Counted from the first letter of the stretch, positions 2-52,035 are shown. The stretch is DNA of 64,000 nucleotides from Candidatus Aminicenantes bacterium (GCA_963719985.1 CAVRDU010000005.1:1156432-1220431); one strand, 5' to 3'. The notes: generated from the letters alone by a model not told the origin. Made by a program: numbers and translations.

Positions 2-1243
2 CTCGTCGCCGTCTCCTTGGTCGGCCTGGCGGCCAGCCTGTTCGCCGTCGACTACATGGAGCACTACGGGGGCAAGGCCGCCTACCACGCCCTCTACCTG
101 ATCATGATCGCCGGGATGAACGGGCTTCTCCTCTCGACCGACCTCTTCAGCGTCTACCTCTTCCTCGAGGTGGCCGCCGTCGCCTCGTACGCCCTCGTCG
201 CCTTCGGCCTCGGCCACGACGAGCTCGAGGCCGCGTTCAAGTACCTGATGCTCTCGGTCGTCGCCTCGGCGGCGATCCTGGCGGCGATCGCGGTCATCTT
301 CGGCGTGACCGGCAGCCTCGATTTCGCGGCCGTGGCGGCCGCCCTGCCGGAGCTCGACGCGGGCGCGGTCGTGGCCATCGCCTCCGGCCTTTTCCTCATG
401 GGATTCGGGCTCAAGGCGGCCCTCATCCCCTTCCACGCCTGGCTGCCGGACGCGCACCCTTCGGCCCCGGCGCCCATCTCGGCCGTCCTGTCCGGCCTGC
501 TGATCAAGGTCTCCGGCGTTTACGCGCTGGCCCGGATCTTCCTCAACGTCTTCGGCCTCACGCCGGCCCTGTCGGCCGTCCTGATGGTCGTCGGCACGGT
601 GTCGATCGTCGTCGCCGCCTTCCTGGCGCTCGGCCAGAAGGACATCAAGAGGATGCTCGCCTACTCGTCGATCAGCCAGGTCGGCTACGTCGTCCTAGGC
701 ATCGGCCTCGGGACGCCGCTCGGGATCGCCGGCGGCCTCTTCCATCTCTTCAACCACGCCCTGGCCAAGGGGCTGCTGTTCCTGACCAGCGGCTCCGTCC
801 AGCAGGCCACCGGGACGCGCGACCTGGACGAGATGGGCGGGCTGGCCAAGCGCATGCCGGTCACGGCCGCGACGAATCTCGTCGGGGCCCTGTCGATCGC
901 CGGCGTCCCGCCGCTCAACGGCTTCTGGTCCAAGCTCATCATCATCGTGGCCCTCGTCCAGGCCGGGGAGCCCGTGTTCGCCGTGATCGCCGTCCTGGCA
1001 TCGGTCCTGACCCTCTGGTATTACCTCCTCATGCAGCGGAAGGCCTTCTTCGGCAAGCTCGACGAGAAGTGGGCCGCGGTCAAGGAGGCGCCGTTCTGGA
1101 TGACGGCCGCGACCGTCCTCCTGGCCCTCCTCTGCGTGGGGATCGGCATCCTCTTTGCGTCGACCGTCTCGACCTGGATCCAGCCCGCCGCCGACATCCT
1201 CGCGGACGGGGTCCGGGCCGCGGCCGGATCGTGGGGATTTTAG
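2..1243 (+). CDS. Antiporter-like membrane subunit of an Mbh-type group 4 hydrogenase / complex I family (MbhH, NuoL/M/N, MrpD-like); 5' end truncated by the window edge
   Basis: The 408-aa polytopic membrane ORF has the characteristic WLPDAHPSAPAPISAV and SQVGYV motifs of the NuoL/M/N-MrpD family, and the reading frame is open to the window start. It is first in an operon that continues with NuoA/B/C/D/H/I-like genes. Confidence 0.8.
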   Translation, partial: LVAVSLVGLAASLFAVDYMEHYGGKAAYHALYLIMIAGMNGLLLSTDLFSVYLFLEVAAVASYALVAFGLGHDELEAAFKYLMLSVVASAAILAAIAVIFGVTGSLDFAAVAAALPELDAGAVVAIASGLFLMGFGLKAALIPFHAWLPDAHPSAPAPISAVLSGLLIKVSGVYALARIFLNVFGLTPALSAVLMVVGTVSIVVAAFLALGQKDIKRMLAYSSISQVGYVVLGIGLGTPLGIAGGLFHLFNHALAKGLLFLTSGSVQQATGTRDLDEMGGLAKRMPVTAATNLVGALSIAGVPPLNGFWSKLIIIVALVQAGEPVFAVIAVLASVLTLWYYLLMQRKAFFGKLDEKWAAVKEAPFWMTAATVLLALLCVGIGILFASTVSTWIQPAADILADGVRAAAGSWGF

Positions 1244-1246
1244 ACG

Positions 1247-1729
1247 ATGATCGTTCAAACCGCCCTTCTCATCGGTGTCGTGCTCTTCTCCGTCCTGGCC
1301 ATCCTGCTCAAGGACGTGCTCAAGTCGGCCATCTCCCTGGCCGTGTCCAGCCTCCTTCTGGGGATCATCTTCTTCCGGATGGACGCGCCCTACGCGGGTG
1401 TCTTCGAGATCTCCGTCGTCGCCGGGCTGATCACTGTCCTGTTCATCCTGACCATCGCCCTGACCAAGGCCGGCGAGGAGGTCCGCGAGTCCAAGGCCGC
1501 CAACGTGGTCTTCCCGCTCGTTTTCGTGGCCTTCGTCGTCATCGACGCGCTGGTCATGAAGGGCCTGATCGGCAAGGTCCCGGCCCTGGCCGGCGGCGCC
1601 GAGGCCGGGTCGTTCGGCGAAGTCCTCTGGAGGGGCCGGACCTTCGACCTCGTAGGCCAGATCGCGGTCATCCTGGCCGGGGTGTTCGCCGTTCTGGCGC
1701 TATTCCGCAAGAGGGACAAACATGACTAA
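1247..1729 (+). CDS. MrpB/MnhB-like small membrane subunit of the Mbh-type hydrogenase
   Basis: The 160-aa hydrophobic ORF is tightly packed in the operon and is MnhB-domain-like by composition. An RBS lies upstream. Confidence 0.55.
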   Translation: MIVQTALLIGVVLFSVLAILLKDVLKSAISLAVSSLLLGIIFFRMDAPYAGVFEISVVAGLITVLFILTIALTKAGEEVRESKAANVVFPLVFVAFVVIDALVMKGLIGKVPALAGGAEAGSFGEVLWRGRTFDLVGQIAVILAGVFAVLALFRKRDKHD

Positions 1730-2030
1730 TACCTGGTATCTCTACCTGTTCTTCGCGGCCGCCCTCATTTTCGCCGGGCTCCTCGGCCTGCTGGCCCGGC
1801 GCAACCTCATCAAGCTCCTGATCGCCGTCGAGGTCATCGGCAAGGGCATCAGCCTGCTCCTCCTGTCGACCGGCTTCGCCAAGGGCCACATCCTGACAGC
1901 CCAGGCCCTGGTCATCACGTTCATCGTCGTCGAGGTCAGTCTCGTCGCCACGGCGCTGGCCCTGGTCATCAATATCTACCGCCACACGAAGGGCCTGGAC
2001 GTCCGCAAGCTGGCCCACCTGAAAGGGTAA
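1722..2030 (+). CDS. NuoK/MrpC-like membrane subunit (MbhG-like)
   Basis: The 102-aa protein has three TM helices and resembles NADH-quinone oxidoreductase chain 4L (LLIAVEVIGKGISLLLL). Its start overlaps the upstream stop by 8 nt. Confidence 0.6.
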   Translation: MTNTWYLYLFFAAALIFAGLLGLLARRNLIKLLIAVEVIGKGISLLLLSTGFAKGHILTAQALVITFIVVEVSLVATALALVINIYRHTKGLDVRKLAHLKG

Positions 2031-2033
2031 GCC

Positions 2034-2366
2034 ATGAACGGAATCGGCATCCTGCTCTCCCCGCCCGTAGCCTTTCTCTTCTTCCTCGGCGCGGCCTTCG
2101 GCCTTTACGCCCTGGGCCGGGGCATGGCCCCCAAGCTGACCAAGGCCGGCGGGAAGCTCACGACCTACGCCTGCGGCGAGGACATCCCCGGGGTCAAGGT
2201 CCAGTTCGGCTACCGTCTCTTCTTCTTCATCGCTCTCTTCTTCACCATGATGCACGTCGCCGTCCTGGTCATCGCCACCGTGCCGTCCGGCAAGATCGTC
2301 TTCTTCGCCCTGTTCTACCTCGTCATGATCTTCCTGTCCGTCATGGCCCTGGTCACGAGGAGTTAA
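2034..2366 (+). CDS. NuoA-like small membrane subunit (MbhI-like)
   Basis: The 110-aa protein carries a TYACGEDIP motif resembling the NuoA P-Y-E-C-G motif, followed by a FFFIALFFTMMHVAVL helix. Confidence 0.55.
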   Translation: MNGIGILLSPPVAFLFFLGAAFGLYALGRGMAPKLTKAGGKLTTYACGEDIPGVKVQFGYRLFFFIALFFTMMHVAVLVIATVPSGKIVFFALFYLVMIFLSVMALVTRS

Positions 2367-2367
2367 C

Positions 2368-2787
2368 ATGCTCAAAAAGCTCACGCGCTGGTCCAGGATC
2401 AAGTCGCCCTGGATCCTCCACCTCAACTCCGGCGCCTGCAATGCCTGCGACATCGAGATCGTCGCCGCGCTGACGCCGCGTTTCGACGTCGAGCGCTTCG
2501 GCATCCTGCTCAAGGCCACGCCGCGGCACGCCGACGTCATCGTGGCCAGCGGCCCGGTGACCCGCCAGATGAGGGACAGGATCATCCGCATCTACGAGCA
2601 GACGCCCGACCCCAAGTTCGTCATCGCCGTGGGCGCCTGCGCCATGTCCGGCTGCGTCTACCGCGGCGCCTACAACATTCTGGGCGGCATCGACCAGGTC
2701 ATCCCGGTCAACATCTACGTGCCGGGCTGCCCGGCCCGGCCCGACGCCATCGTCGACGGCGTCGTCAAACTTCTGGGAAAACTCTAG
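2368..2787 (+). CDS. [NiFe]-hydrogenase small subunit, NuoB-like (MbhJ-like)
   Basis: The Cys ligands for the proximal 4Fe-4S cluster are present (CNAC, GACAMSGC, VPGCPARP). It is 139 aa with a GAGGAG RBS. Confidence 0.85.
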   Translation: MLKKLTRWSRIKSPWILHLNSGACNACDIEIVAALTPRFDVERFGILLKATPRHADVIVASGPVTRQMRDRIIRIYEQTPDPKFVIAVGACAMSGCVYRGAYNILGGIDQVIPVNIYVPGCPARPDAIVDGVVKLLGKL

Positions 2788-2803
2788 CCATTAAGGAAAT
2801 GTC

Positions 2804-3274
2804 ATGACCGACGCCGAACTCATCGACAAGATCAAGGCCGACCTGGGAGACCGGGTCGAGATCGCCAATCCCGCCCCGCGGCGGCTCTTCCTGAAGGTTT
2901 CGCCGCAGAACCTCGTGGCCGTCACGACGAGGCTCCGGGACGCGTTCGGGGTCGTCTTCCTCTCGACCATCAGCGGGGTAGACCTTGGCGCGACGTTCGA
3001 GATCGTCTACCATTTCTCCACGCCCGAGACGGACTACAACCTCCGGACGGAGATCCCGAGGGACCGTCCCCATGTCGCCAGCATCACGTCCGTCATCCCG
3101 GGCGCCATCCTGTACGAGCGCGAGCTCCAGGACATGTTCGGCATGGTCGTCGACGGCCTCCCCGATCCCCGCCCCCTCGTCCTCCCCGACGACTGGCCGG
3201 CGGGCAACTACCCCCTGCGGAAGGACTGGAAGCACGAGCGGCCCCAGGAAGTCATCCCCGGAGGTAAGTCATGA
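2804..3274 (+). CDS. NuoC-like 30-kDa subunit of the group 4 hydrogenase (MbhK-like)
   Basis: The 156-aa ORF has a NuoC-family fold signature (ERELQDMFG) and sits in operon position between the NuoB- and NuoD-like genes. Confidence 0.8.
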   Translation: MTDAELIDKIKADLGDRVEIANPAPRRLFLKVSPQNLVAVTTRLRDAFGVVFLSTISGVDLGATFEIVYHFSTPETDYNLRTEIPRDRPHVASITSVIPGAILYERELQDMFGMVVDGLPDPRPLVLPDDWPAGNYPLRKDWKHERPQEVIPGGKS

Positions 3275-4476
3275 GTTTCCAGATCCCCATCGGGCCCCAG
3301 CACCCGGCCCTCAAGGAGCCGATCAGCCTGCGCATGACGGTCGAGGGCGAGGTCATCACCGACGTCGACATCCGCCTGGGCTACAACCATCGGGGCGTCG
3401 AGAAGATCGCCGAGGACAGGAACTGGACCCAGAACATCTACCTCGTCGAGCGCATCTGCGGCATCTGCTCCCACTCCCACTCCACCTGCTACGTCCAGGG
3501 CGTCGAGAAGCTCATGGAGCTCGAGCCGCCCAAGCGCGGCATGTACATCCGCTATCTCGTCTCCGAGCTCGAGCGCATCCACAGCCACCTCCTCTGGCTC
3601 GGCGTCGCCGGCCACGAGGCCGGCTTCGACTCCTTCTTCATGTACACCTGGCGGGACCGCGAGATCGTCATGGACCTCCTGGAAATGATCACCGGCAACC
3701 GCGTCCACTACGCCATCAACACGATCGGCGGCGTCCGCCGCGACCTCGACGAAGGCCAGAAGGCCAAGATCCTGGAGGGCATGGCCACGCTGAGGAAGAG
3801 GAGCGAGTACTACTTCCACATCGGCGCGAACGAGCCCAGCTTCGTCGGCCGGATCGCCGGCGTCGGCATCCTGCCCAAGGAGAGGGCCATCGCCCTTTGC
3901 GCCGTCGGCCCGACGGCCCGGGCCTCGGGCTGGCCCCGGGACGTCCGCAAGGAGGATCCCTACGCGGTCTACGACGGAGCTCGAATTCGACGTCGCCACC
4001 GCCGATTCCTGCGACGTCCTCGGCCGCGTCGTCGTCCGGGTCAAGGAGCTCCTGGAGTCCTACAAGCTCTGCGAGCAGATGGTCCGCAACCTCCCGCGCC
4101 GGGGAGATCGCCGTCAAGGCGCCGCGCAAGGCCAAGCCCGGCGAGGTCGTCAGCCGCTACGAAGCCCCCCGCGGCGAGAACATCCACTACATCAAGGCCA
4201 ACGGGACGCGACAAACCCGAGCGGCTCAAGGTCAGGGCCCCGACGCTCGGCAACTACCCGGCTACGGTGGAGATGCTCCGGAAGGGTTTCATCGCCGACA
4301 TCCCGCTCATCTTCGCCGCCATCGACCCCTGCATCTGCTGCGCCGAACGGACCGTGACGCTCGTCGGCGCGCGGACCGGCGAAGAATCCGTCGTCCGGAT
4401 GAGCGACCTGCGCCGGCAGGCGATCGCCCGGCATCAGAACGCCCCCTTGAAAAGGAATGCCGCATGGCCGCTCTGA
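3271..4476 (+). CDS. Group 4 [NiFe]-hydrogenase large subunit (NuoD-like, MbhL-like); the reading frame is interrupted by three +1 indels, likely assembly errors
   Basis: The N-terminal RICGICSHSH motif (RxCGxCxxxH) and the C-terminal DPCICCAER motif (DPCxxCxxR) are both present. The middle of the protein (DELEFDVATADSCDVLGRVVVRVKELLESYKLCEQMVRNLP, then GEIAVKAPRKAKPGEVVSRYEAPRGENIHYIKANG) is only recovered by switching frame 1 to 2 to 3 and back to 1 around 3975, 4100 and 4210. Confidence 0.85.
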   Translation: MSFQIPIGPQHPALKEPISLRMTVEGEVITDVDIRLGYNHRGVEKIAEDRNWTQNIYLVERICGICSHSHSTCYVQGVEKLMELEPPKRGMYIRYLVSELERIHSHLLWLGVAGHEAGFDSFFMYTWRDREIVMDLLEMITGNRVHYAINTIGGVRRDLDEGQKAKILEGMATLRKRSEYYFHIGANEPSFVGRIAGVGILPKERAIALCAVGPTARASGWPRDVRKEDPYAVYDGARIRRRHRRFLRRPRPRRRPGQGAPGVLQALRADGPQPPAPGRSPSRRRARPSPARSSAATKPPAARTSTTSRPTGRDKPERLKVRAPTLGNYPATVEMLRKGFIADIPLIFAAIDPCICCAERTVTLVGARTGEESVVRMSDLRRQAIARHQNAPLKRNAAWPL

Positions 4477-5435
4477 GAACGATCCTTTACCTCGTCGTCT
4501 ATCCCGGGCTGCTGTTCCTTTTCGTCTACTCGACCTTCTGCGAGTGGTTCGACCGCAAGGTCTACGCCCGCCTGCAGAACCGGATGGGGCCGACCCATAC
4601 CGGGCGGTTCGGCCTGCTCCAGCCGATCGCCGATTTCGTCAAGCTCCTGGCCAAGGAGGACGTCGTCCCCGAGGCCGCGGACAAGCGCCTTTTCTCGGTC
4701 CTGCCCGTGGTCGGGCTGGCCGTGGTCATGACGGCCGGTCTCCTCCTCCCCGTCTGGAACTTCGACCTGACCCAGCCGGGCTGGACGTCCTTCTCCGGCG
4801 ACATCATCGTCATCCTGTACCTGCTCAGCCTGCCGACGCTCGTCCTCTTCCTGGCCGCCTGGTCCTCGACCAACCTCTTTTCCACGATCGGCGGCGCCCG
4901 CGTCCTGACCATGCTCTTCGGCTACGAGGTGCCGCTCTTCCTGGCCGTGCTCACCCCGGCCATCCTGGCCGATTCCTGGCGCCTGGCCGAGATCGCGGCC
5001 TTCTATCAGGCCAGGCCGGTCCTCCTCCTGCCGAACCTGCTGGCGTTCGTCATCGCCGTCATCGCCGTCCAGGCCAAGCTCGAGCGGACCCCGTTCGACA
5101 TCCCCCACGCCGAGACGGAGATCGTCGGAGGCACGTTCACGGAATACTCGGGCAAGAAGCTGGCCCTCTTCCGGCTGACCTTCGACATCGAGATGGTCGT
5201 CGCCAGCGGCCTTCTGGCGACCGTTTTCCTCGGCGGCTTCCCCGGCGGGGCGGTCCTGGGCCTCCTCCAGTTCGTCGCCAAGACCCTCTTCATCATCTTC
5301 CTCCTGTCCCTGCTCCGGGCCCTGACGTCGCGGATCCGCGTCGACCAGGTCGTCTCTTTCGCCTGGGGGTACCTGGCCCCGCTGGCGGTCTTCCAGCTTC
5401 TGGCCATCATCCTCCTGAAGGGATTCCTGAAATGA
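4464..5435 (+). CDS. NuoH-like membrane subunit (MbhM-like)
   Basis: The 323-aa polytopic protein matches the NuoH family (GLLQPIADFVKLLAKEDVVP, ERTPFDIPHAETEIVGG). Its ATG at 4464 follows an RBS. Confidence 0.85.
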   Translation: MAALRTILYLVVYPGLLFLFVYSTFCEWFDRKVYARLQNRMGPTHTGRFGLLQPIADFVKLLAKEDVVPEAADKRLFSVLPVVGLAVVMTAGLLLPVWNFDLTQPGWTSFSGDIIVILYLLSLPTLVLFLAAWSSTNLFSTIGGARVLTMLFGYEVPLFLAVLTPAILADSWRLAEIAAFYQARPVLLLPNLLAFVIAVIAVQAKLERTPFDIPHAETEIVGGTFTEYSGKKLALFRLTFDIEMVVASGLLATVFLGGFPGGAVLGLLQFVAKTLFIIFLLSLLRALTSRIRVDQVVSFAWGYLAPLAVFQLLAIILLKGFLK

Positions 5436-5854
5436 AGATCGCCGTCTTTCTCCCCGAGCTCCTCCGCCACCTTTTCAAGAAGCCGGCCACCGTCGACTAT
5501 CCCTTCAAGAAGCTCGAGGTGCCCCCCGACTTCCGCGGGACGCCCTACCTCGACCCCGAGATGTGCATCGTCTGCAAGGCCTGCGAGCGGGACTGCCCGG
5601 CCGAGGCCATCGAGATCACCGACGTCGATCCCGCCGAGAAGCGCTTCAAGATGGTCATCCACAACGACCGCTGCATCCACTGCGCCCAGTGCGTCGATTC
5701 CTGCCCGACGACGCCCAAGGCCATGCGCATGGACAACCTTTTCGAGATCGCGACGGACAGCCGCCACAAGCTCAAGGCCGAGTGGGTGTACGTCCGGGCC
5801 GTGATCAAGCCCAAGGCGCCCGCGCCACCGCCGCCGGTCGCCCCGGCCGCCTGA
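5432..5854 (+). CDS. NuoI-like 2x[4Fe-4S] ferredoxin subunit (MbhN-like)
   Basis: Two CxxCxxCxxxCP motifs are present (CIVCKACERDCP and CIHCAQCVDSCP). The ATG at 5432 overlaps the NuoH-like stop. Confidence 0.85.
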   Translation: MKIAVFLPELLRHLFKKPATVDYPFKKLEVPPDFRGTPYLDPEMCIVCKACERDCPAEAIEITDVDPAEKRFKMVIHNDRCIHCAQCVDSCPTTPKAMRMDNLFEIATDSRHKLKAEWVYVRAVIKPKAPAPPPPVAPAA

Positions 5855-5936
5855 TCGCCTAGCGAATTCCCCTGCCCTTATCCGCCCGCGGATCGAGGGC
5901 TTTCCCCGTTCATCTTCCGGCTCCGCGAGGCCGGCG

Positions 5937-7034
5937 TCAGATCTTCATGGGCATGAGGACGTAGATGTTCGTGATCGCTTCCTCGGCCTCAGGCTTGAGG
6001 AGGACGGCGCTGTTCTCGTCCTTGATCTCGAAAACGACCTTCTCGGAACCGACCGCGGTGAGGAAATCGAGGAGATACTGGGCGTTGAAGCCGATCTCCA
6101 GGTCCTGGCCCTTGTATTCGACCGCCAGGCGGTCGCGGGCCTCTCCGATCTCCGGGTTGGACGAGAAAAGCCTCAGCTTGTTCTTCTCGACCGTGAACTT
6201 GATCCCCTTGGACCGCTCTGCCGACAGGAGCGACACCCGGCGGATGGCCCCGGCGAGCTCCTCTCTTCCGATCGTCAACCGCCCGGGGTTGTCCTTGGGG
6301 ATGACGGCCTGATAATTGGGGAACTTGCTCTCTATGATCCGCGAGATGAGCGTCCGCGGCCCGACCCGGAAGAAGAGGTTGTTCTCGTCGAGATCGAAAG
6401 AGATCGTCTCGTCCTCGAACTTCCTGATCTCGGCCAGGGTCTTCTTGGCGACGATGACGCTCGTCTCCTTGTCGAGCTTCAGGCCGTCCTCGGCTTTGCG
6501 CGTATAGGAGAGCCGGTGCCCGTCGGTGCTGACCAGCTCGATCTGCCTGTTCTTGAGCGACAGGAGCGCCCCGTTGAGATAGTAGCGCTGTTCCTGGGTG
6601 ATCGCGAAAAATACGCGGTCGATCATGTCCTTGAAGGCGGCCAGAGGCAGCTCGATGCCTTTTTCGAACCTGGCGTCCGGCACCTGAGGGTAATCCTCTT
6701 TGGCCAGGCAAAGGACCTTGAACTCGCTTTCGCCGGCCTTGATCTCGATCGTCTCGTCCTTCAGCTCGACCTGGACGGTCTGCCCCTCGGGCAGCGACTT
6801 GACGATCTCGAATATCTTCTTGCCGTTGATCGTTATCGCGCCGGTCCGTTCGATCCCGGCTTCGAGGTGCGTCCTCAGCCCGACCTCGAGGTCCGTCCCC
6901 GTCAGTTCGATGTCCTTCTCGCCGACGTTCATGAGGATATTGGCCAGGATCGGCATCGTGTTCCTCTTCTCGACGATGCCCTGGAGGATCTGGAGCTCGC
7001 TCAGGAACGCTTCTTTCGGTATCGAGAATCTCAT
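5937..7034 (-). CDS. dnaN: DNA polymerase III beta sliding clamp
   Basis: The 365-aa protein has typical DnaN sequence throughout (MRFSIPKEAFLSELQILQGIVEKRNTMPILANILM), with a GAGGTGG RBS 6 nt upstream of the ATG. Confidence 0.95.
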   Translation of the reverse strand: MRFSIPKEAFLSELQILQGIVEKRNTMPILANILMNVGEKDIELTGTDLEVGLRTHLEAGIERTGAITINGKKIFEIVKSLPEGQTVQVELKDETIEIKAGESEFKVLCLAKEDYPQVPDARFEKGIELPLAAFKDMIDRVFFAITQEQRYYLNGALLSLKNRQIELVSTDGHRLSYTRKAEDGLKLDKETSVIVAKKTLAEIRKFEDETISFDLDENNLFFRVGPRTLISRIIESKFPNYQAVIPKDNPGRLTIGREELAGAIRRVSLLSAERSKGIKFTVEKNKLRLFSSNPEIGEARDRLAVEYKGQDLEIGFNAQYLLDFLTAVGSEKVVFEIKDENSAVLLKPEAEEAITNIYVLMPMKI

Positions 7035-7059
7035 AAGACCACCTCTCGCGCCGTTTTCC

Positions 7060-7150
7060 TTGTTCTTCGCTCTTTATTCTTTATTCTTTATTCTTAATAT
7101 TTAATTCAGAATAAGACCTAAATCAAGAAGAGAAATAAGAATGTCCTCTG
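7060..7150. repeat. AT-rich tandem repeat (TTTATTC x3 plus TTAATATTTAAT) in the dnaA-dnaN intergenic region; candidate DNA unwinding element of oriC
   Basis: A roughly 90-bp stretch of below 30% GC sits inside a roughly 70% GC genome. It contains ctttattctttattctttattcttaatatttaattcagaataag, located between the dnaA stop and the dnaN start. Confidence 0.55.
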
Positions 7151-7186
7151 GAAATGTGGGAATCCGCCCGAACTCGTTGATCCGCC

Positions 7187-8530
7187 TCATTGGATGAAGG
7201 CCAGAAGGCTGTTGATCTCTTTGTTGAATTCGGGATCGTCCGTCCTCAATTTCTCTATCTTGCGGATGCTGTGGATCACCGTCGTGTGGTGTTTTCCACC
7301 GAATTTCTTGCCGATCTCCGGGAGAGAGGACTTGGTCAGCTCCTTGGCCAGATACATGGCGATCTGGCGGGGAAAGGCGATCTTGGGGGAATTGTTCTTC
7401 GATTTGAGCTGAGAGGCCTTGATCTTGAACCTGTGACAGATGAGCTTCTGGATCTTTTCCACAGTGACGATGGTCGTCGAGGGGTCCAGAAGCCCCTTGA
7501 GGGCCTCCTTCGTCAAGTCGAGGTCGATGCGCTCCCCCTTGAGCGAGGCGAAGGCGATAACGCGGCGCAAATAGCCTTCGAGCTCGCGGATATTGGTCTG
7601 GACCTTGTCTGCGATATAAAGAGCGACGCTCTCGGGGAGAAGGACGGCCTCGGCTTCGGCCTTCTTCTGGAGGATGGCGATGCGCGTCTCGATGTCCGGG
7701 GGCTTGAGGTCGGCGATCAGGCCCCATTCGAAGCGCGAACGGAAGCGTTCCTCGAGGTGGGGGATCTCCTTTGGTGGGCAATCGCTGGAGATGACGATCT
7801 GCTTCTGGCTGTCGTAAAGATGGTTGAAGGTGTGGAAAAACTCCTCCTTCGTCCGTTCGCGGCCGGAGAGGTAGTGGATATCGTCCATGAGAAGAAGGTC
7901 GACGCTCCGGTATTTCTCCCGGAATTCCAGGATCTTGCCGTACTGGAGGTGATTGACGAGGTCGTTCATGAACTTCTCGGTCGTGACGTAGAGGATCTTG
8001 TTCCGCGGATTCTGCTGGATGGAGAAATGGCCGATGGCGTTCATGAGATGGGTCTTGCCGAGGCCCGCCCCGCCGTAGACGTACAGGGGGTTGTAGGATT
8101 TGGCCGGGTTCTTGGCCACGGCCGAGGCCGCGGCGTGGGCGAATTGATTGCAGCTGCCGACGACGAAGTTCTCGAAAGTGTAATTCGGATTGAGGTTCGG
8201 ATTGACCGCCTGTCCGGGCTTCGTCTTCCTCTCCTCGGGCGACCGCCTCATGAAAGCGGTCGGCGTGTCGTCGTGGATGTAGCGGATGTCGAACGTCTTG
8301 CCGAAGACGTCGCGGGAGCAATCGTTGATGATGTTCGAATAGTGGAACGAGAGCCAGTCGCGGAAGTAGGCGTTCGGGACCTTGACGTACAAGCAGTCCT
8401 GCTCCTGGCCGATGAAGGCCGTCGGATCGAACCAGGTCTCGAAGGAATTGGGATCGACCTTGGTTTCGACCAGCCGGAGGATATCGATCCAAGGGTTTTG
8501 TTTTTCTTTAGGTTCCATGGGAGCCGTCAT
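7187..8530 (-). CDS. dnaA: Chromosomal replication initiator protein DnaA
   Basis: DnaA domain I (NPWIDILRLVETKVDPNSFETWFDP), the AAA+ Walker A motif (GGAGLGKTHL) and a C-terminal DNA-binding domain are all present. The start codon is uncertain (the Met at 8530 or 8518; the ORF is open to 8611). Confidence 0.93.
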   Translation of the reverse strand: MTAPMEPKEKQNPWIDILRLVETKVDPNSFETWFDPTAFIGQEQDCLYVKVPNAYFRDWLSFHYSNIINDCSRDVFGKTFDIRYIHDDTPTAFMRRSPEERKTKPGQAVNPNLNPNYTFENFVVGSCNQFAHAAASAVAKNPAKSYNPLYVYGGAGLGKTHLMNAIGHFSIQQNPRNKILYVTTEKFMNDLVNHLQYGKILEFREKYRSVDLLLMDDIHYLSGRERTKEEFFHTFNHLYDSQKQIVISSDCPPKEIPHLEERFRSRFEWGLIADLKPPDIETRIAILQKKAEAEAVLLPESVALYIADKVQTNIRELEGYLRRVIAFASLKGERIDLDLTKEALKGLLDPSTTIVTVEKIQKLICHRFKIKASQLKSKNNSPKIAFPRQIAMYLAKELTKSSLPEIGKKFGGKHHTTVIHSIRKIEKLRTDDPEFNKEINSLLAFIQ

Positions 8531-8531
8531 T

Positions 8532-8605
8532 TTTTCCACAGAATTTTCCACATCTGTGGAAAATCTCTCCCGGGGGGATGGCAGCCGGAAGAGGCCTGGG
8601 GATAA
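8532..8605. promoter_or_regulatory. Cluster of DnaA-box-like 9-mers upstream of dnaA (oriC / dnaA autoregulatory region)
   Basis: TTTTCCACA occurs at 8532-8540 and 8544-8552, TGTGGAAAA at 8556-8564, and TGGGGATAA (reverse complement TTATCCCCA) at 8597-8605. Each is within one mismatch of TTATCCACA. Confidence 0.6.
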
Positions 8606-8797
8606 TAGCATTCCGGGGGGGCCAATTCAAGCTTTTTTTTAGGGGAAAAAGGCCTTCGTGGGAGGTTCGGGCCGGACGATGGCCAAGGATCGCCGAGCCC
8701 TTCGCGGGAAGGACGAAAAAGCTTGGAAATCGGCCCGCGGCGGGGTCCGGAGGCCGGCTAAAAGGGCCTGTTTTGTCGGGCTTAGAGAGGGTTCGCG

Positions 8798-25614: not shown

Positions 25615-27531
25615 ATGGACAAGCGCGCGCGGAAAGTCATCGTTCCGGCGATCTTCGCGGCCGCGGGCGTTATCGCCCTGACGGCGCAGGATCAGGGCCT
25701 GCGGGGCCGGGAGAGCTTCGAGCCGAGGCCGACGAAAGCGTACATCGTCGGGGGCGTCCGTCACGGCGCGAGCTTCTTCCCCCGGGCCGGCTACGAGTTC
25801 ACCAAGCCCAAGGCCGCCGGGGAGATGGACTTCCTCCACTACCACACCTACGACGAGGTCAACGGCTTCCTCGAGAAGTGGGCCGCGGACCACCCCGACA
25901 TCGTCGAGCTCTATTCGGTCGGGAAATCCTACGAGGGCCGGGAGATCTGGCAGATCACCATCACCAACAAGACGACCGGCAAGGACACCGACAAGCCGGC
26001 CATGTTCATCGAGGGCAACCGGCACTCCGGCGAGGTCACGGCGGCCGAGTGCGCGCTCTGGTTCGCCGACCACATCATCCGGGGCTACGGCAAGGACCCG
26101 GGGCTGACGAAGCTCGTCGATACCAAGGCGATCTACGTCCGGGTCAAGAACAATCCCGACGGCTCGATGCTCTACCTGAACACGGCCCAGTCGAACCGGA
26201 GCACGGTCCGGCCCTACGACGACGACCGCGACGGCCTTCTCGACGAGGACCCGCCCGAGGACCTCGACGGCGACGGCTTCATCCTCCAGGTCCGCAAGAA
26301 GGTCGAGCCCGGGAAGGGCACGATGGTCGTCGATCCCGACGACCCTTCGGGCCGGCTCATGAAGCGGGCCGAGCCGGGCAAGGGCGACTATGTCGTCTCC
26401 TCCGAGGGCGTCGACAACGACGGCGACGGCCGGACGAACGAGGACGGCATCGGCGGCCTGGACCTCCACCGCAACTACCCGGAGAACTGGCGGCCCATGC
26501 CCGGCCGCGACCTGACCGGACGCGGCTGGACCCAGGGCGGGGCCGGCGAGTATCCGCTCTCCGAAACCGAGACGCGGGCCGTCTTCACTTTCCTCCTCGA
26601 GCACCCCAACGTCAGCGTCGTCCAGACGATGGACACGACCGTGCCCATGCTGCTCCACGGCCCGTCGACCAGCCGGATGAGCGAGTCGATGTTCCCCGAG
26701 GACATGAAGATCTACCAGTACTTCGACGAGCAGGGCAAGAAGATCACCGGCTACGCCAGCGCCGGGGACACCTATTGGGACTACGCCAACATGGGCCGCG
26801 GCGACCGCGAGATGAGGGCCCGGGCCGCGGAGATGGGCTTCGAGGTCCCCGACGAGCCCCAGGGCAGGCCGCTCTTCGGCCACTCCCCCGACTTCGGCTA
26901 CCTCTATTACGGCGCCGTCTGGTACGGCGACGAGCTCTGGAACGGCGGCCGGCTCAAGGACTACGACGGCGACGGCCGCGTGACCGAGCTCGAGAGCCTG
27001 CGCTTCATCGACGAGGAGCTCGGCGGCCGCTATTTCAAGCCCTGGACGAAGGCCCACCACCCGGTCCTCGGCGAGGTCGAGATCGGCGGCTTCAACCCCA
27101 AGTTCTGGCGTCAGAACCCGCCCGTCGAGCTCCTCGAGGAATGGATCAAGAAGGAGGCCCTGTTCAATCTCCTCCTGGCCCAGTCGCTGCCGCAGGTGCA
27201 GGTCCTCTCCGCGGAGATGAAGCCGGTCCGGAAGGAAGCGGACACGTACGAGATCGTGGCCGTCTTCACGAACGAAGGCTTCCTGCCGACGGCCCTCAAG
27301 ATGGCCGAGCGGGTCAAGATCGTCCGGCCGGACGCGGTCTCGGTCCGGCTCCCGGCCGGGGCCGAGCTCGTCGGCGGCCGGGCCCGCCAGGAGATCGGCC
27401 ACCTCAAATCGAACGAGCGCAAAGAGGTCCGGTGGAAGATCAAGGTCAAGCCGGGCACGGCCGGCGAGGCCGAGGTCTCGATCCAGTCGACGCGGGGCGG
27501 CGTGGCCCGCAAGACTGTCAAGATCGGCTAG
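25615..27531 (+). CDS. Secreted M14-family zinc carboxypeptidase
   Basis: It has a signal peptide and an M14 core (HYHTYDEVNGFLEKWAADHPD, GNRHSGEV). It is 638 aa. Confidence 0.8.
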   Translation: MDKRARKVIVPAIFAAAGVIALTAQDQGLRGRESFEPRPTKAYIVGGVRHGASFFPRAGYEFTKPKAAGEMDFLHYHTYDEVNGFLEKWAADHPDIVELYSVGKSYEGREIWQITITNKTTGKDTDKPAMFIEGNRHSGEVTAAECALWFADHIIRGYGKDPGLTKLVDTKAIYVRVKNNPDGSMLYLNTAQSNRSTVRPYDDDRDGLLDEDPPEDLDGDGFILQVRKKVEPGKGTMVVDPDDPSGRLMKRAEPGKGDYVVSSEGVDNDGDGRTNEDGIGGLDLHRNYPENWRPMPGRDLTGRGWTQGGAGEYPLSETETRAVFTFLLEHPNVSVVQTMDTTVPMLLHGPSTSRMSESMFPEDMKIYQYFDEQGKKITGYASAGDTYWDYANMGRGDREMRARAAEMGFEVPDEPQGRPLFGHSPDFGYLYYGAVWYGDELWNGGRLKDYDGDGRVTELESLRFIDEELGGRYFKPWTKAHHPVLGEVEIGGFNPKFWRQNPPVELLEEWIKKEALFNLLLAQSLPQVQVLSAEMKPVRKEADTYEIVAVFTNEGFLPTALKMAERVKIVRPDAVSVRLPAGAELVGGRARQEIGHLKSNERKEVRWKIKVKPGTAGEAEVSIQSTRGGVARKTVKIG

Positions 27532-28909
27532 ATCGACCGGAGCCCGGCTTTCCGGCCGAGAGGCCGTAGGTCTTGACCTTGTAGGCGAGCATCCGCTCGG
27601 TGATGCCCAGCGCGCGGGCGGCCCGGCTCTTGACCCCGCCGGCCTCCCGGAGGGCCATACGGATCTCCTGCGTCTCGAGGCGGCGGACCTTGTCGACCAG
27701 GGAATCGCCGGCCGTTCCGGGATCCTCGTAGGCGGCTTCCGTGAGGCTGAGGGGAAGGTCGGCGACGCCGAGGACGTCCCGCTCGGCGAATACGACCGCC
27801 CGCTCGACGACGTTCTCGAGCTCGCGGACGTTGCCGGGATAGGCGTGGCCCACGAGGGCGCCCAGGGCCTCCCGCGTGATCCCCTGGATCTTCTTTCCCT
27901 CCCGCTCGGCGAATTTCCTGAGGAAGAGGTCGGCCAGGAGCGGGATGTCCTCCTTCCTCTTGCGGAGCGGAGGCACGGCGATGGGGATGACGTTCAGGCG
28001 GTAGAAGAGGTCGGCCCGGAACCGGCCGCCTTTCATCTGGGTTTCGAGGTCCCGGTTGGTCGCGGCGATGATCCTGACGTCGGCCCGGAGCGCCTGGCTC
28101 GAGCCGAGCCTGTAGTACTCCCGGTCCTGGAGGAAGCGCAGCAGCTTGACCTGGGCCTCGGGGGCGAGGTCGCCGATCTCGTCGAGGAAGACGGTCCCGC
28201 CGGAGGCGGCCTCGAACTTGCCGATCTTCCGCTCGTGGGCGCCGGTGAAAGACCCTTTCTCGGCCCCGAAGAGCTCCGCCTCGATGAGGGTCTCGGGGAG
28301 GGAAGGGATGTTCAGCGCGACGTACGGGCCTTTCTTTCGCGCCGAGGACTGGTGGATCATCCGGGCCACGAGGTCCTTGCCGGTCCCCGTCTCCCCGGTG
28401 ACGAGGACCGTGGCCTCGCTCCGCGCGGCCTTGAGGACAAGGCGGGCGACGTCCTCCATGAGCGGGGAGGCGAAGACGAAGTTCCGGACGCTGAGCTTCT
28501 CCTCCAGGCGCTCCTGGAGGGACGAGATCTCTTTCTTGAGCTTCTGCCGCTCCGCGGCCCGCTCGAGGACGAGGAGGAACCTCTCGAAGTCGAGCGGCTT
28601 GACGATGTAGTCGTAGGCCCCGGCGCGGACGGCCTCGACGGCCCGCTCGATGTTCCCGTAGGCGGTGACCATGATCGGCGTCACCAGGGGATTGGCCGCG
28701 AGCACGTCCCGGATGACGTCGATGCCCGTTTCGTCGCCGAGCTTGTAGTCGACGACGGCCACGTCGACCGGGTTGCGGAGCACGGCCTCGAGGGCCTCCT
28801 TCCGGGAAGCGGCCTCGACGACCGGGAAGCCGCGCGCCTCCAGGTTCTTCCGGATGAGCTGGCGCTGGACGGGATCGTCCTCGACGATCAGGATGAGGGG
28901 CTCGTTCAT
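27518..28909 (-). CDS. Sigma54-dependent response regulator (NtrC family enhancer-binding protein)
   Basis: It has a REC domain (LIVEDD...D54), an AAA+ sigma54-interaction domain (GETGTGKDL, GAFTGA-like GSFTGA, ESELFGAEKG) and a C-terminal HTH. The probable start MNEPLIL is at 28909. Confidence 0.92.
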   Translation of the reverse strand: MNEPLILIVEDDPVQRQLIRKNLEARGFPVVEAASRKEALEAVLRNPVDVAVVDYKLGDETGIDVIRDVLAANPLVTPIMVTAYGNIERAVEAVRAGAYDYIVKPLDFERFLLVLERAAERQKLKKEISSLQERLEEKLSVRNFVFASPLMEDVARLVLKAARSEATVLVTGETGTGKDLVARMIHQSSARKKGPYVALNIPSLPETLIEAELFGAEKGSFTGAHERKIGKFEAASGGTVFLDEIGDLAPEAQVKLLRFLQDREYYRLGSSQALRADVRIIAATNRDLETQMKGGRFRADLFYRLNVIPIAVPPLRKRKEDIPLLADLFLRKFAEREGKKIQGITREALGALVGHAYPGNVRELENVVERAVVFAERDVLGVADLPLSLTEAAYEDPGTAGDSLVDKVRRLETQEIRMALREAGGVKSRAARALGITERMLAYKVKTYGLSAGKPGSGRSSRS

Positions 28910-28910
28910 G

Positions 28911-30152
28911 TCACGCTCCAGGAAGCTCGATCCGGAATTCCGTCCCGTGGCCTTCGCGGCCGCGGACATCGATCGTTCCGCCGTGCGCTTCGATGATCCT
29001 TCTGGTCAGGTACAGGCCTATCCCCATCCCTTTCTCCTTGGTCGTGTAGAACGGCTCGAAGACACGGGCCGCGGCTTCAGGCGGCAGGCCGGGCCCGCCG
29101 TCGTGGACGATGACCTCGACCTTCTTGCCGATCCGCCGGCCGCGGGCCCGTACGGGCGCGTCCGGCGAGGCCTCGATGGCGTTCTTCAGGACGTTGAGGA
29201 AGGCCTGGACCAGGAGGTCCCGATCGCCGGACAGGAGGACACCCGGAGCGGGCTCGACCTCGAGGCGCGACGGCGCGCCAGGGACCTCGGCGGCCAGGCT
29301 CTCCGCGGCCTGTCGCAGAACGTCGTCGAGCGACAGGGCCTCGAGGTCCGGCCGGACGGCCTTAACGACGCGCGAGAACCGGTCGACGATGCGGGCGATC
29401 GTCCGGACCTGGGCCTTTCCGAGATCGACGTCGCTCTTGGCCTCCGGGGGGGACTTGCGGCCCAGGAGCTCGAGGGCGAGGGCCAGGCTGTTGAGGGGGT
29501 TCTTGATCTCGTGGGCGACGCCCGATGTGAACGCCGAGATCTCCCGGAACCTCTCTTTCTCGAGCCGCTCGGTCTCGGCCTCGCGGGCCTTGGCCACGTA
29601 ATCCGACTGGAGCCGGTAGAGGCCCCGGAAGAAGATGGCGCCGGCGAGAAGGATGAGCCCGGCGATGAGGTAGGAGGTTCGCCGGGACGAGGCGATCATC
29701 TCCTCCATCCCCGCCAGGGCATAGCCCAGGTAGAGGAAGTACGCGCGGCCGCCAGCGGCCGAGAAGGCCGAAAGAGAGCTGTAGATCTTGCCGGCGGGGG
29801 ACTCGATGACGCTCGATCCCCCGGACCGGGCGTCCCTGAGGGAGATCGGGAGGTAGCCCTCGTATCGGGAGTTCCAGGCCAGGACGTTCTTCTCCGCGTC
29901 GAGGAGGGCGACGAAATAGATGTTCTCCCCGGACAGGATGGCCTCGAGGACCTCCTCGGGGGCCCTGCCCTCGTCGAGGAAGTGGGAAGCCGTCGTCCGG
30001 AGGATGCCCGACGTGGCCTCGAGCTGATCGTGGACGAGCCCTTCCGTCCGGCGCTTCAGGTCGGCCTGGGCGAGGACGGACGACAGGGCGAAGAAGACGA
30101 GCACGCCCAGGAAGGGGAGGACGAAGAAAAGGAGGACGCTGCGCCGCTTCAA
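28911..30152 (-). CDS. Sensor histidine kinase with periplasmic sensing domain
   Basis: It has two TM helices flanking a roughly 140-aa periplasmic domain, a HisKA domain (SGVAHEIKNPLNSL) and a HATPase_c domain (HDGGPGLP, GMGIGL). Confidence 0.9.
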   Translation of the reverse strand: MKRRSVLLFFVLPFLGVLVFFALSSVLAQADLKRRTEGLVHDQLEATSGILRTTASHFLDEGRAPEEVLEAILSGENIYFVALLDAEKNVLAWNSRYEGYLPISLRDARSGGSSVIESPAGKIYSSLSAFSAAGGRAYFLYLGYALAGMEEMIASSRRTSYLIAGLILLAGAIFFRGLYRLQSDYVAKAREAETERLEKERFREISAFTSGVAHEIKNPLNSLALALELLGRKSPPEAKSDVDLGKAQVRTIARIVDRFSRVVKAVRPDLEALSLDDVLRQAAESLAAEVPGAPSRLEVEPAPGVLLSGDRDLLVQAFLNVLKNAIEASPDAPVRARGRRIGKKVEVIVHDGGPGLPPEAAARVFEPFYTTKEKGMGIGLYLTRRIIEAHGGTIDVRGREGHGTEFRIELPGA

Positions 30153-34275: not shown

Positions 34276-34287
34276 AGGAGACACGCC

Positions 34288-35708
34288 ATGAAAAAGAAGG
34301 TCATCTGGATCATCGTCGCCCTGGTCGTCGTGGCCGGGGCCATCCTCGGCCTGACCGTCTTCCGCAACGGGAAGGACGGCAAGGTCGAATATCGGACCGA
34401 GGCCGTCAGCCGGGGCGACATCGAGGCCCTGGTCGTCACGTCCGGGACGCTCAATCCTCTCGAGACGGTCGACGTCGGGGCCCAGGTCTCGGGCAAGATC
34501 GTCGAGCTCTACGCCGACTTCAACTCCCAGGTCACCAAGGGCCAGGTCGTGGCCGAGCTCGACCAGGAGCCCCTGAAGATGAAGATCGACCAGAACGAGG
34601 CCAACTACAAGAGCCGCGTCGCTTCTCTGGACCGGTCCAAGGTCAACCTGCAGACCGCCGAGAAGAACCTCGAGCGGGCCAAGTCGCCTCTTCGCCAAGG
34701 ACCTCATCTCGATCGAGGAGATGGACGCCGCCGAGGCGAACTACCTCAACGCCAAGAGCGACCTCGTCTCCGCCGAGGCCAGCCTGGCCCAGGCCAAGAG
34801 CACGCTCGACCTGAGCAAGGTCGACCTCGGATACGCCGTCATCAAGGCGCCGGTCGACGGGGTCGTCATCACCCGGAAGGTCAACATCGGCCAGACCCTC
34901 CAGTCGAGCTACCAGGCCCCGGTCCTGTTCCAGGTGGCCACCGACCTGACCAAGATGAAGGTCGAGTGCAGCGTCGACGAGTCCGACATCGGCAAGGTCA
35001 AGGAAGGGCAGAAGGTCCGGTTCACGGTCGAAGCTTACCCCACCGAGAACTTCAACGGCATCGTCCAGCAGGTCCGCTTCTCGCCCGAGACCGTCCAGAA
35101 CGTCGTCACGTACACGACGATCGTCAGCGTCGAGAACCCCGCGAAGAAGCTCCTCCCCGGCATGACGGCGACGGTGTCCATCATCGTCGGCGAGGCCAAG
35201 AACGTCCTCCGGGTCCCCAACGCCGCCCTCCGGTTCACGCCCATCCTCACTCCCGAGGAGATGGAGAAGCTGCTGACGGAGATGCGGGACAAGCTGATGG
35301 CCCAGCGACAGGCCGAAGGCGGCCAGCCGGCCGGCGCCCAGCCGGGCGCCAAGGTCAGCGGCGGGGCCGCTCCGGCCGCGGCCCGGCCGCAAGGCCAGGG
35401 CGGGCGCGATGATGTTTCCGGGCCAGGGCGGCGGCGAAGGCCAGGCCGGCCGGGCCCGCCAGCAGGCGCCCCGGATCTGGATCAAGGGAGAGAACGGGAA
35501 GCTCCTGCCGGTCATGGTCCGGACGGGCGTCGCGGACACAAGCTACACGGAGATCGCCCGGGCCATCGGCGCCGAGCTCAAGGAGGGCGATGTCCTCGTC
35601 ACCGGAACGCTGACGGCGTCGTCCAGGACAACGAACACCGGCATGAACCAGATGATGTTCATGGGCGGCCCGGCGCCGGCGGTAGGCTCGGCCCGGCTGA
35701 GGAGAACG
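34288..35708 (+). CDS. macA: MacA/HlyD-family efflux periplasmic adaptor; two +1 frameshifts (near 34683 and 35398), likely assembly indels
   Basis: The N-terminal part is in frame 1, the middle in frame 2 (from 34721) and the C-terminal part in frame 3 (from about 35400). No in-frame stop separates it from the macB ATG. Confidence 0.8.
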
Positions 35709-35711
35709 ACC

Positions 35712-36397
35712 ATGCCCGGAAACGTCATAGAGCTGCAGAACCTGATCAAGACCTATCACATCGGCGAGACCCAGGTCAGAGCCCTGCGCGGCGTATCCTA
35801 CTCGATCGCCGCGGGGGAGTTCCTGGCCATCATGGGCCCGTCGGGATCGGGCAAGTCGACCTTGATGAACATCCTCGGCTGCCTGGACCGCCCGACCTCG
35901 GGAGAGTACATCCTCGACGGCGAGGAGGTCTCCACGTTCGACAAGAACAAGCTGGCCCGCGTCCGGAACCGTAAGATCGGATTCGTGTTCCAGAGCTACA
36001 ACCTCCTGGCCCGGACGACGGCCCTCGAGAACACCGAGCTGCCGCTTCTCTATTCGACCACGAACGGCCAGGACGTGACGAAGCGGGCCCTGGCCTCTCT
36101 CGCCGCCGTCGGCCTCAGCGACCGGGCCCACCACAAGACGAACCAGCTCTCGGGGGGCGAGCAGCAGCGGGTGGCCATCGCCCGGGCCCTGCTCAACAAC
36201 CCGACCCTGATCCTGGCCGACGAGCCGACGGGGAACCTGGACAGCAAGACGTCGTCGGAGGTCATGAACATCTTCAAGACCCTCAACGAGGACAAGGGCA
36301 TGACCATCGTCATGGTCACCCACGAGCCCGACATCGCCGCCTGGGCCCGGGCCCGGATCTACCTCAAGGACGGGCTCATCGTCGGGGAGGAGCGGTC

Positions 36398-52003: not shown

Positions 52004-52035
52004 TCGGGGCGAATCGATCCAAGGACCTTACGTTC

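Follow-up and report, generated by a model that had tools for sequence, protein, structure and literature searches.

A conserved Aminicenantes operon predicted to encode a group 4 [NiFe]-hydrogenase with an Mbh-like core and a complex-I-like membrane arm

We found that positions 2-5854 of a 64-kb window of Candidatus Aminicenantes DNA (the window being the whole stretch that was analyzed) contain nine genes, which form the 3′ part of an 11-gene operon conserved across Aminicenantes (Acidobacteriota). The operon probably encodes an intact group 4 [NiFe]-hydrogenase with an Mbh-like core and a complex-I-like membrane arm, the single-base insertions seen in its large-subunit gene being artefacts.

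ORF calling shows nine co-directional genes that fill this region (Table 1). Their products match the Pfam and NCBIfam profiles Proton_antipo_M, Oxidored_q3/MbhD, Oxidored_q2 (NuoK), Oxidored_q6 (NuoB), Complex1_30kDa (NuoC), Complex1_49kDa with NiFeSe_Hases (NuoD/large subunit), NADHdh (NuoH) and 2x[4Fe-4S] proteins, with E-values from 1e-9 to 1e-84. The translation of the NuoI-like gene contains the motifs CIVCKACERDCP and CIHCAQCVDSCP. The 110-aa ORF has no match in Pfam or NCBIfam, and a gene in this position is kept in place in all related operons. Among solved structures, the 160-aa NuoJ/MbhD-like protein matches chain 6CFW_D with an E-value of 2e-8 and NuoJ with one of about 1e-3. The gene for the NuoH-like anchor shares its first 13 nt with the 3′ end of the large-subunit gene. 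This single operon encodes the anchor together with one or more antiporter-like subunits and the 2x[4Fe-4S] subunit, a combination typical of group 4.

Table 1. Positions of the operon genes and of neighbouring features, counted from the first nucleotide of the window
Feature	Position	Strand	Evidence
Antiporter-like subunit, third of operon (NuoL/M/N, MrpD, MbhH-type)	2..1243	+	Proton_antipo_M 1.7e-73; top NCBIfam model "monovalent cation/H+ antiporter subunit D"
NuoJ-like/MbhD-like small membrane subunit, 160 aa	1247..1729	+	Oxidored_q3 1.7e-9; MbhD 5.4e-7
NuoK/MbhG/MrpC-like subunit, 102 aa	1722..2030	+	Oxidored_q2 2.5e-18; NCBIfam matches MrpC, NuoK
110-aa membrane protein in NuoA/MbhI position	2034..2366	+	Weak ND3/NuoA match, E 0.15; common Y-x-CG-x-D loop
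Hydrogenase small subunit (NuoB/MbhJ-like), 139 aa	2368..2787	+	Oxidored_q6 3.8e-31; 6CFW_J 171 bits
NuoC/MbhK-like subunit, 156 aa	2804..3274	+	Complex1_30kDa 3.4e-30
[NiFe] large subunit (NuoD/MbhL-like), 400 aa after removal of three 1-nt insertions	3271..4476	+	
Out-of-frame stretch of large-subunit gene, about 78 codons, includes EAPRGE	3973..4207	+	Reading frame moves from 1 to 2, then to 3 and back to 1
NuoH/MbhM-like membrane anchor, 323 aa	4464..5435	+	NADHdh 1.1e-83
NuoI/MbhN-like 2x[4Fe-4S] subunit, 140 aa	5432..5854	+	Fer4 families; NCBIfam HyfH, HycF, NuoI
Spacer, 82 bp	5855..5936		Possible hairpin, -32.3 kcal/mol, z -1.13 (not significant)
dnaN (context)	5937..7034	-	ORF; L001 orthologue with DNA_pol3_beta domains
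dnaA (context)	7187..8611	-	ORF; L001 orthologue of 443 aa with DnaA domains

We scanned genome contigs for the large subunit and obtained 80 loci, the best match being 89% identical; the source genome was not in the set. About 64 of the Aminicenantes loci share the 11-gene order and its flanks, with large subunits that are 75-89% identical. The order is three antiporter-like genes, followed by genes for the NuoJ/MbhD-like, NuoK-like and NuoA/MbhI-like proteins, the small subunit, the NuoC-like protein, the [NiFe] large subunit, the NuoH-like anchor and the 2x[4Fe-4S] protein. On the upstream side, the relatives have polA and a divergent acetyltransferase gene, and on the downstream side dnaN and dnaA. 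In the related locus L001, the three Proton_antipo_M genes encode 476, 622 and 493 aa, and the arrangement in other relatives is alike.

These loci revise the original prediction, which regarded the operon as complete and placed Mrp E/F/G-like genes and any sigma54 promoter beyond the window. The first gene is in fact cut at the window edge, with roughly 80 codons of its 5′ end missing by comparison with the 493-aa L001 orthologue, and in the relatives another two antiporter-like genes precede it. Among the related loci, 64 reach far enough to show that neither the operon nor the region upstream of it has MrpE/F/G (MbhA-C) genes; the upstream side is instead occupied by the two antiporter-like genes, the divergent acetyltransferase gene and polA. 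A sigma54 -24/-12 element is present in 0 of the 64 upstream regions, where a TATACT box resembling a -10 element is kept instead.

The metal ligands of the enzyme were predicted correctly. Both cysteine pairs of the large subunit, in RICGICSHSH (Cys63/66, at nucleotides 3457-3468) and DPCICCAER (Cys codons at 4330-4332 and 4339-4341), lie in one frame and correspond in alignments to the cysteines that bind NiFe in MbhL and HycE. In the small subunit, C24, C27, C91 and C121 align with the cysteines of P. furiosus MbhJ that bind the single proximal [4Fe-4S] cluster. Given these alignments with MbhL and MbhJ, the cluster is, on the evidence of its sequence, one that encodes a true group 4 [NiFe]-hydrogenase, and not an Ehr complex or complex I. 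The retained ligands set it apart from both, as had been proposed. A complex I, Ehr or Mbx-type oxidoreductase that has given up both production and use of H2 is thus very improbable, although NuoD scores best among the NCBIfam models for the large subunit (336 bits, under its cut-off of 360 bits) and the subunit set matches the complex I core of 11 subunits (NuoA, B, C, D, H, I, J, K, L, M and N, including three antiporter-like subunits and no N-module). In complex I, NuoD has no NiFe cysteines and forms a quinone site; its homologue here retains all four cysteines, and the gene order differs. EAPRGE is conserved along with both CxxC motifs, and against solved structures MbhL (293 bits, 43% identity) and HycE (272 bits) outscore every NuoD (about 209 bits). 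Ehr/Mbx complexes, represented by MBS (6U8Y), have homologous subunits, of which MbsL scores 170 bits, but by definition lack NiFe cysteine ligands (PMC6349859).

The corrected large subunit also has a 41-aa C-terminal extension after DPCICCAER. Residues 360-393 align with the extension that follows DPCxxCxxR in HycE, which likewise argues against loss of hydrogenase function. HycI cuts this extension off HycE as the protein matures, and the Aminicenantes large subunit would probably be matured by cleavage at the corresponding place. A hycI gene occurs in the operon of distant relatives. In the 64-kb window, we found neither hyp genes nor hycI (ORFs at 15-33 kb and 37-64 kb were scanned, and 8.8-14.9 kb was judged from the Pfam matches of the syntenic L001 genes).

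The best solved match is the P. furiosus MBH (6CFW; HydDB group 4d), with all of whose NiFe and FeS ligands the Aminicenantes enzyme agrees and with which it presumably shares its ferredoxin-to-H2 chemistry. The comparison of the large subunit by subgroup covered 4d (MbhL) and 4a (HycE). The predicted Mbh gene order holds for the last six genes, which are arranged like MbhI-J-K-L-M-N, but not for the membrane arm. Unlike MBH, the operon has no MbhA-C (MrpE/F/G, the "Na module") and no MbhF, and a single NuoJ-like protein of 160 aa replaces separate MbhD and MbhE. The host is a bacterium, unlike P. furiosus. There are three antiporter-like subunits, encoded first in the operon, whereas MBH has only one, MbhH (PMC8165549). 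A canonical P. furiosus-type, Mrp-linked Mbh of group 4d with its MbhA-C/MrpEFG genes just beyond the window would agree with the order of the last six genes, with MbhL, MbhJ and MbhD being the best solved matches, and with the name "membrane-bound hydrogenase subunit alpha" that JGI gives to many orthologues. We nevertheless consider it improbable, given the upstream genes of the 64 related loci, the number of antiporter-like subunits and the position of their genes before the J/K-like genes.

HycE of the E. coli formate hydrogenlyase Hyc (7Z0S) is the second-best solved match. Unlike Hyc/Hyf, the Aminicenantes operon has no formate dehydrogenase, HycB-like or HyfA-like genes in or beside it, NuoC and NuoD are unfused, and the gene order is different. 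Three antiporter-like subunits are also found in hydrogenase-4 (Hyf, group 4a). Ech (group 4e) has six subunits, one of them antiporter-like, in contrast to the eleven genes and three antiporter-like subunits here. The nearest large subunits outside Aminicenantes (47-52% identity) come from Methanoregula (L085), Anaerolineales (L086) and a metagenome lineage (L083). Their operons share the A-B-C-D-H-I module and the J/K-like genes, contain two or more antiporter-like genes and lack MrpEFG. In L083 the antiporter genes are placed as in Aminicenantes, but in L085 and L086 they lie between the K-like and A-like genes. All three have hycI directly downstream, where Aminicenantes has dnaN.

The operon is an ordinary membrane-bound [NiFe]-hydrogenase operon of a known, well-populated and already annotated family: hundreds of near-identical database entries are called "nickel-dependent hydrogenase large subunit" or "membrane-bound hydrogenase subunit alpha". 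Searches of the literature gave nothing informative on the enzyme in Aminicenantes or on its HydDB subgroup. [quoted passage not shown] If so, the ion-to-electron stoichiometry or the direction would differ from those of MBH. The conserved layout with three antiporter-like subunits and without Mrp-E/F/G could interest those who study the evolution of complex I, although the window adds nothing on this layout beyond what the relatives already show. Hydrophobicity suggests that the 622-aa antiporter-like subunit of the relatives ends in a NuoL-like tail of a TM segment, an amphipathic helix and a second TM segment (lateral helix); a phmmer search with its C-terminal 140 aa gave no significant PDB match.

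The original prediction overlooked frameshifts in the large-subunit gene. Three-frame translation, alignment with relatives (L001 and L002) and a codon-position GC frame plot reveal three 1-nt insertions, at about 3973-3976, 4097-4098 and 4206-4207, which put about 78 codons between the two cysteine motifs out of frame. An uninterrupted frame through EAPRGE, absent here, is present in all 80 genome relatives. After correction, the protein is identical to the relative P0001 at 396 of 400 positions (99%) and is full length in comparison with the 80 genome loci. The three insertions are the only indels relative to a short-read contig of 99.0% identity. In a 5.8-kb alignment at 94.5% identity, they and a 1-nt indel near 5826 are the only ones. 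That fourth indel falls where the nuoI-like gene is divergent, in its 3′ tail. Searches of the protein collection with corrected and uncorrected 260-aa C-terminal fragments (n = 7) gave no match, nor did metagenome DNA scans using patterns that admit both states, base inserted or not, at sites 2 and 3. The short-read run ERR12037370 encodes a NuoH identical to that of the window.

Single-base insertions of this kind also break other genes of the window: the essential pyrG at two sites, a MacA-like gene at two and an M16 peptidase gene at one. Every shift that we detected is +1. Because such insertions recur in these other genes and the source contig is 1.7 Mb long, consensus errors of a long-read-type assembly are the most likely explanation, and the organism's own enzyme is therefore probably intact. 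Six of the seven mapped insertion sites are at most 6 nt from CGAC/GTCG, compared with a background of 17.7% (a post hoc observation). The three insertions in the large-subunit gene jointly restore the frame, which could also resemble compensation under selection. We rejected programmed frameshifting, which would need three consecutive +1 events at sites that share no slippery motifs; moreover, the same lesion leaves pyrG and the M16 peptidase gene permanently out of frame.

A genuine and very recent pseudogene or inactive allele, leaving the strain without a functional hydrogenase, would account for the out-of-frame codons of the deposited sequence, EAPRGE included, and for its uncorrected product of 401 aa, which comes from a contig of 1,699,221 bp, being a singleton cluster among about 15 billion proteins. 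We regard this as unlikely, given that the shifted segments are about 99% identical in nucleotides to an intact relative without further decay, the remaining eight genes of the operon are intact, identical insertions affect pyrG and two unrelated genes of the window, and the gene is intact in 80 of 80 genome relatives and in 120 protein clusters. With assembly error as the preferred reading, a catalytic gene that looks intact by its motifs yet is disrupted in the assembly is a practical caution. Since this gene, pyrG and others are affected, pseudogene or gene-content calls on the source contig need to be checked against the reads.

As to function, we infer an electron donor, a direction and an ion specificity as follows. 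Reduced ferredoxin would donate electrons to the NuoI-like subunit, whose two clusters would pass them to the small-subunit cluster and on to the NiFe site, where protons would be reduced to H2. Through the NuoH-like anchor, the Mbh-like catalytic module would be coupled to the complex-I-like arm, whose three antiporter-like subunits, with no MrpE/F/G Na module, would translocate ions, probably H+. Such a hydrogenase is in keeping with the proposal that Aminicenantes live by fermentation and produce H2. Three antiporter-like subunits are, however, hard to square energetically with the small driving force from ferredoxin to H+, so direction and stoichiometry are uncertain.

The Eha, Ehb and Ech enzymes of methanogens have been proposed to run in reverse. 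For the Aminicenantes enzyme, this would mean that oxidation of H2 drives the reduction of ferredoxin and consumes the ion gradient, with the three antiporter-like subunits as ion-influx drivers. On thermodynamic grounds their number exceeds what ferredoxin-to-H+ transfer can pay for, and the closest relatives outside Aminicenantes include the methanogen Methanoregula. However, the sequence gives no indication of direction, no ferredoxin-consuming or CO2-fixation genes adjoin the operon in L001 and the related loci, and published work describes Aminicenantes as fermenters that putatively produce H2 (PMC5459899). We therefore see reverse operation as a minor possibility and H2 production as the preferred direction.

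The position of the operon, convergent with dnaN beside the origin region, is as originally predicted. The stop codons of the nuoI-like gene (5854) and dnaN (5937) are separated by an 82-bp gap, and dnaN follows the operon in most of the related loci that are long enough to show it. An intrinsic terminator in this spacer is unsupported, the possible hairpin having a z of only -1.13 and no consensus site having been reported in 5855-5936. The true start of dnaA is probably near 8518. We found 11 DnaA-box-like sites, where 2.1 are expected, and four of them cluster within 74 bp upstream of dnaA (8532-8605).

The operon is predicted to encode a real [NiFe]-hydrogenase. Among solved structures, the large subunit is closest to P. 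furiosus MbhL (293 bits, 43% identity), followed by E. coli HycE (272 bits), and every NuoD scores at most 209 bits. The RICGICSHSH and DPCICCAER motifs match the NiFe ligands of MbhL and HycE column for column, so the two cysteine pairs of the original prediction were correctly placed. The small subunit is nearest to MbhJ (171 bits), with which all four of the cluster cysteines claimed for it align. Because these cysteines are retained, and because MbhL and HycE outscore NuoD, a reading as Cys-less Ehr, Mbx or NuoD is excluded, and the proposed separation from Ehr and complex I relatives holds. Beyond DPCICCAER, the large subunit has 41 more residues; they align with the C-terminal extension that the endopeptidase HycI cuts from HycE during maturation. 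The kind of enzyme is already known and annotated, since sources name such proteins “nickel-dependent hydrogenase large subunit” or “membrane-bound hydrogenase subunit alpha”. The feature is an ordinary member of this kind, with its 5′ part beyond the window edge; the earlier observation was largely right and its interpretation partly right.

Nine tightly packed or overlapping ORFs, assigned to families with Pfam and NCBIfam, fill the stretch between the window edge and 5854. Their order is as originally listed, according to these assignments, a weak match of the 110-aa protein to ND3/NuoA (E 0.15; a Y-x-CG-x-D loop is common to both), and a match of the 160-aa protein to MbhD (E 2e-8), its full-length match to NuoJ being weaker. 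Translation shows two CxxCxxCxxxCP motifs, both complete, in the NuoI-like protein. In the antiporter-like subunit, the charged residues retained in LFLE, GLKAALIPFHAWLPDAH and NGFWSK presumably resemble the usual channel residues.

Features in the window (positions are window-based)
Feature	Position	Strand	Evidence or remark
Antiporter-like subunit	2-1243	+	Proton_antipo_M 1.7e-73
NuoJ/MbhD-like	1247-1729	+	Pfam/NCBIfam
NuoK/MrpC-like	1722-2030	+	Pfam/NCBIfam
Membrane protein, 110 aa	2034-2366	+	no Pfam or NCBIfam family match
NuoB-like	2368-2787	+	Pfam/NCBIfam
NuoC-like	2804-3274	+	Pfam/NCBIfam
NuoD-like, N-terminus NiFeSe_Hases	3271-4476	+	Pfam/NCBIfam
NuoH-like	4464-5435	+	Pfam/NCBIfam
2x[4Fe-4S] protein	5432-5854	+	Pfam/NCBIfam
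dnaN	5937-7034	-	ORF; convergent with operon, 82 bp downstream
dnaA	7187 to about 8518 or 8611	-	ORF
Sigma54-dependent response regulator and histidine kinase	27518-30152	-	regulator: Response_reg + Sigma54_activat + HTH_8
Three consecutive ORFs, about 137, 417 and 278 aa	30149-32722	-	good coding signal; no Pfam match at E <= 1e-4
MacA/HlyD-like efflux adaptor	~34285-35900	+	three successive frames; two +1 shifts, about 34687 and 35370
CTP synthase (pyrG)	51976-53678	+	split into two ORFs (Pfam); single-base insertions 52398, 52471
M16 peptidase (pitrilysin-type, HxxEH)	56172-57702	+	one +1 insertion, ~56530
ORF, 863 aa	59196-61787	+	good coding signal; no Pfam match at E <= 1e-4

The operon had been called complete, but relatives show that the window is short of two genes and part of a third. 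In L001, a close Aminicenantes relative (96% identical) that has the entire operon, three Proton_antipo_M genes (476, 622 and 493 aa) precede eight smaller genes, and tblastn recovered the order ant1-ant2-ant3-J-K-A-B-C-D-H-I in essentially all sufficiently long loci among 80 from Aminicenantes genomes. Upstream, where MrpE/F/G-like genes had been predicted, relatives have two antiporter-like genes. The layout is therefore not that of P. furiosus Mbh, having three antiporter-like subunits and no MrpE/F/G. Nor does any of 64 related upstream regions contain the −24/−12 element of a sigma54 promoter; they have in common a TATACT −10-like box. The last part of the 622-aa subunit consists of two TM segments separated by about 80 hydrophilic or amphipathic residues. 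This tail may resemble the lateral-helix tail of NuoL, although phmmer with the tail gave no support for the likeness.

In Aminicenantes loci, the operon is flanked upstream by polA and a divergent acetyltransferase and, in most loci of enough extent, downstream by convergent dnaN-dnaA; the predicted spacing to dnaN of about 80 bp was accurate. This synteny holds across species with large-subunit identities of 75-89% (L001 and the 80 loci). Throughout the class, the operon thus has a constant place beside the origin region.

The number of antiporter-like subunits is one in MBH, two in MBS and three in complex I and NDH (PMC8165549). The Aminicenantes enzyme differs from MBH in having three, and its inventory is that of the 11-subunit core of complex I, plus the NiFe site. 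When 1.84 billion cluster representatives were scanned in full with HMMER, the nearest non-Aminicenantes lineages were at 47-52% identity. One of these, a metagenome lineage (L083), has the Aminicenantes gene order plus hycI, whereas in Methanoregula (L085) and Anaerolineales (L086) J and K are followed by two antiporter-like genes and then by A, B, C, D, H, I and hycI. MrpEFG occur in none of the three operons. The remaining novelty is the conserved three-antiporter, Mrp-E/F/G-less architecture. In these three relatives, the gene for a HycI-type maturation endopeptidase lies directly 3′ of the nuoI-like gene (L083 6858-7340, L085 12506-13015, L086 12483-13019). In Aminicenantes, by contrast, dnaN fills this position, so hycI must be located elsewhere. 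Neither hyp genes nor hycI were found in the window (ORFs scanned at 15-33 kb and 37-64 kb; 8.8-14.9 kb via syntenic L001 genes).

In the proposed mechanism, electrons from reduced ferredoxin would enter at the NuoI-like subunit and reach the NiFe site by way of three [4Fe-4S] clusters, there reducing protons to H2. The NuoH-, NuoA-, NuoJ- and NuoK-like subunits would couple this reaction, conformationally and electrostatically, to ion translocation by the antiporter-like subunits. As there is no Na module, H+ is probably the ion moved. Three pumping units are puzzling given the small driving force. A live alternative is that the enzyme works in reverse, using H2 and the gradient to reduce ferredoxin.

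Straight translation of the large-subunit gene gives an Arg/Pro-rich run at residues about 236-313. The homologous sequence passes from frame 2 (ELEFDVATADSCDV...NLP) to frame 3 (GEIAVKAP...EAPRGENIHYIKANG) and then to frame 1, and a codon-position GC frame plot switches identically. Alignment to two close relatives locates three single-base insertions, at about 3973-3976, 4097-4098 and 4206-4207. They are the sole indels relative to L002, a 99.0%-identical short-read contig; the 5.8-kb alignment to L001 (94.5% identity) adds just one, a 1-nt indel close to 5826, where the nuoI-like gene diverges towards its 3′ end. As written, the gene would lose some 78 residues, the conserved EAPRGE motif among them; the Cys motifs had seemed intact because both sit in frame 1. 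With the insertions removed, the protein has 400 aa, is identical at 396 of these to the protein P0001, and aligns over its full length with 120 protein clusters and the 80 loci, every one intact. The uncorrected 401-aa product is a singleton in the public protein collection, from a 1,699,221-bp contig.

Window-wide frame analysis found further +1 shifts in the MacA/HlyD-like and M16 peptidase genes. The peptidase has its first 120 aa in one frame and the rest in the next. The last MacA-like frame has no stop before the MacB-like ATPase (start MPGNVIELQ), which may mean that a stop was lost or that there is one more error. Insertions also leave pyrG, normally essential, out of frame (HVTD|IKSAF...GGTVG|DIESLPF), which is strong evidence for local insertion errors in the assembly. 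Each of the eight lesions inserts a single base, and most of them are paired or tripled within about 80-690 nt. Consensus error in the long-contig assembly is quite likely the cause, and we judge it the likeliest source of the errors in the catalytic gene, because single-base insertions recur, including in pyrG, and the shifted segments of the large-subunit gene are otherwise undecayed. That the large-subunit gene is instead a genuine recent pseudogene is improbable: its shifted segments are free of further decay, and like insertions break three other genes in the window. CGAC/GTCG lies within 6 nt of six of the seven mapped sites (3976, 4098, 4207, 34687, 52398, 52471 and 56530), compared to 17.7% of window positions (binomial p about 2e-4, for a motif chosen post hoc), and might point to a context-dependent base-calling or consensus error.

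The window has 11 DnaA-box-like sites against 2.1 expected. Four of these (TTTTCCACA or TTATCCCCA) cluster within 8532-8605, immediately upstream of where dnaA probably starts; at its longest (474 aa), the dnaA ORF runs over the cluster, and the L001 orthologue has 443 aa. The 8.5-8.8 kb intergenic region probably holds oriC, in which case transcription of the hydrogenase operon would meet the leftward replication fork head-on. The response regulator and kinase pair is about 22 kb from the hydrogenase, and we see no link between them. The rest of the window carries origin-proximal housekeeping genes (rpsF-rpsR-rplI-dnaB, radA, ispD, ispF and yidC-jag-mnmE-mnmG-parA-parB). The G+C content is 56.6% in 6001-8000 (dnaN/dnaA) and 62-71% elsewhere in the window.
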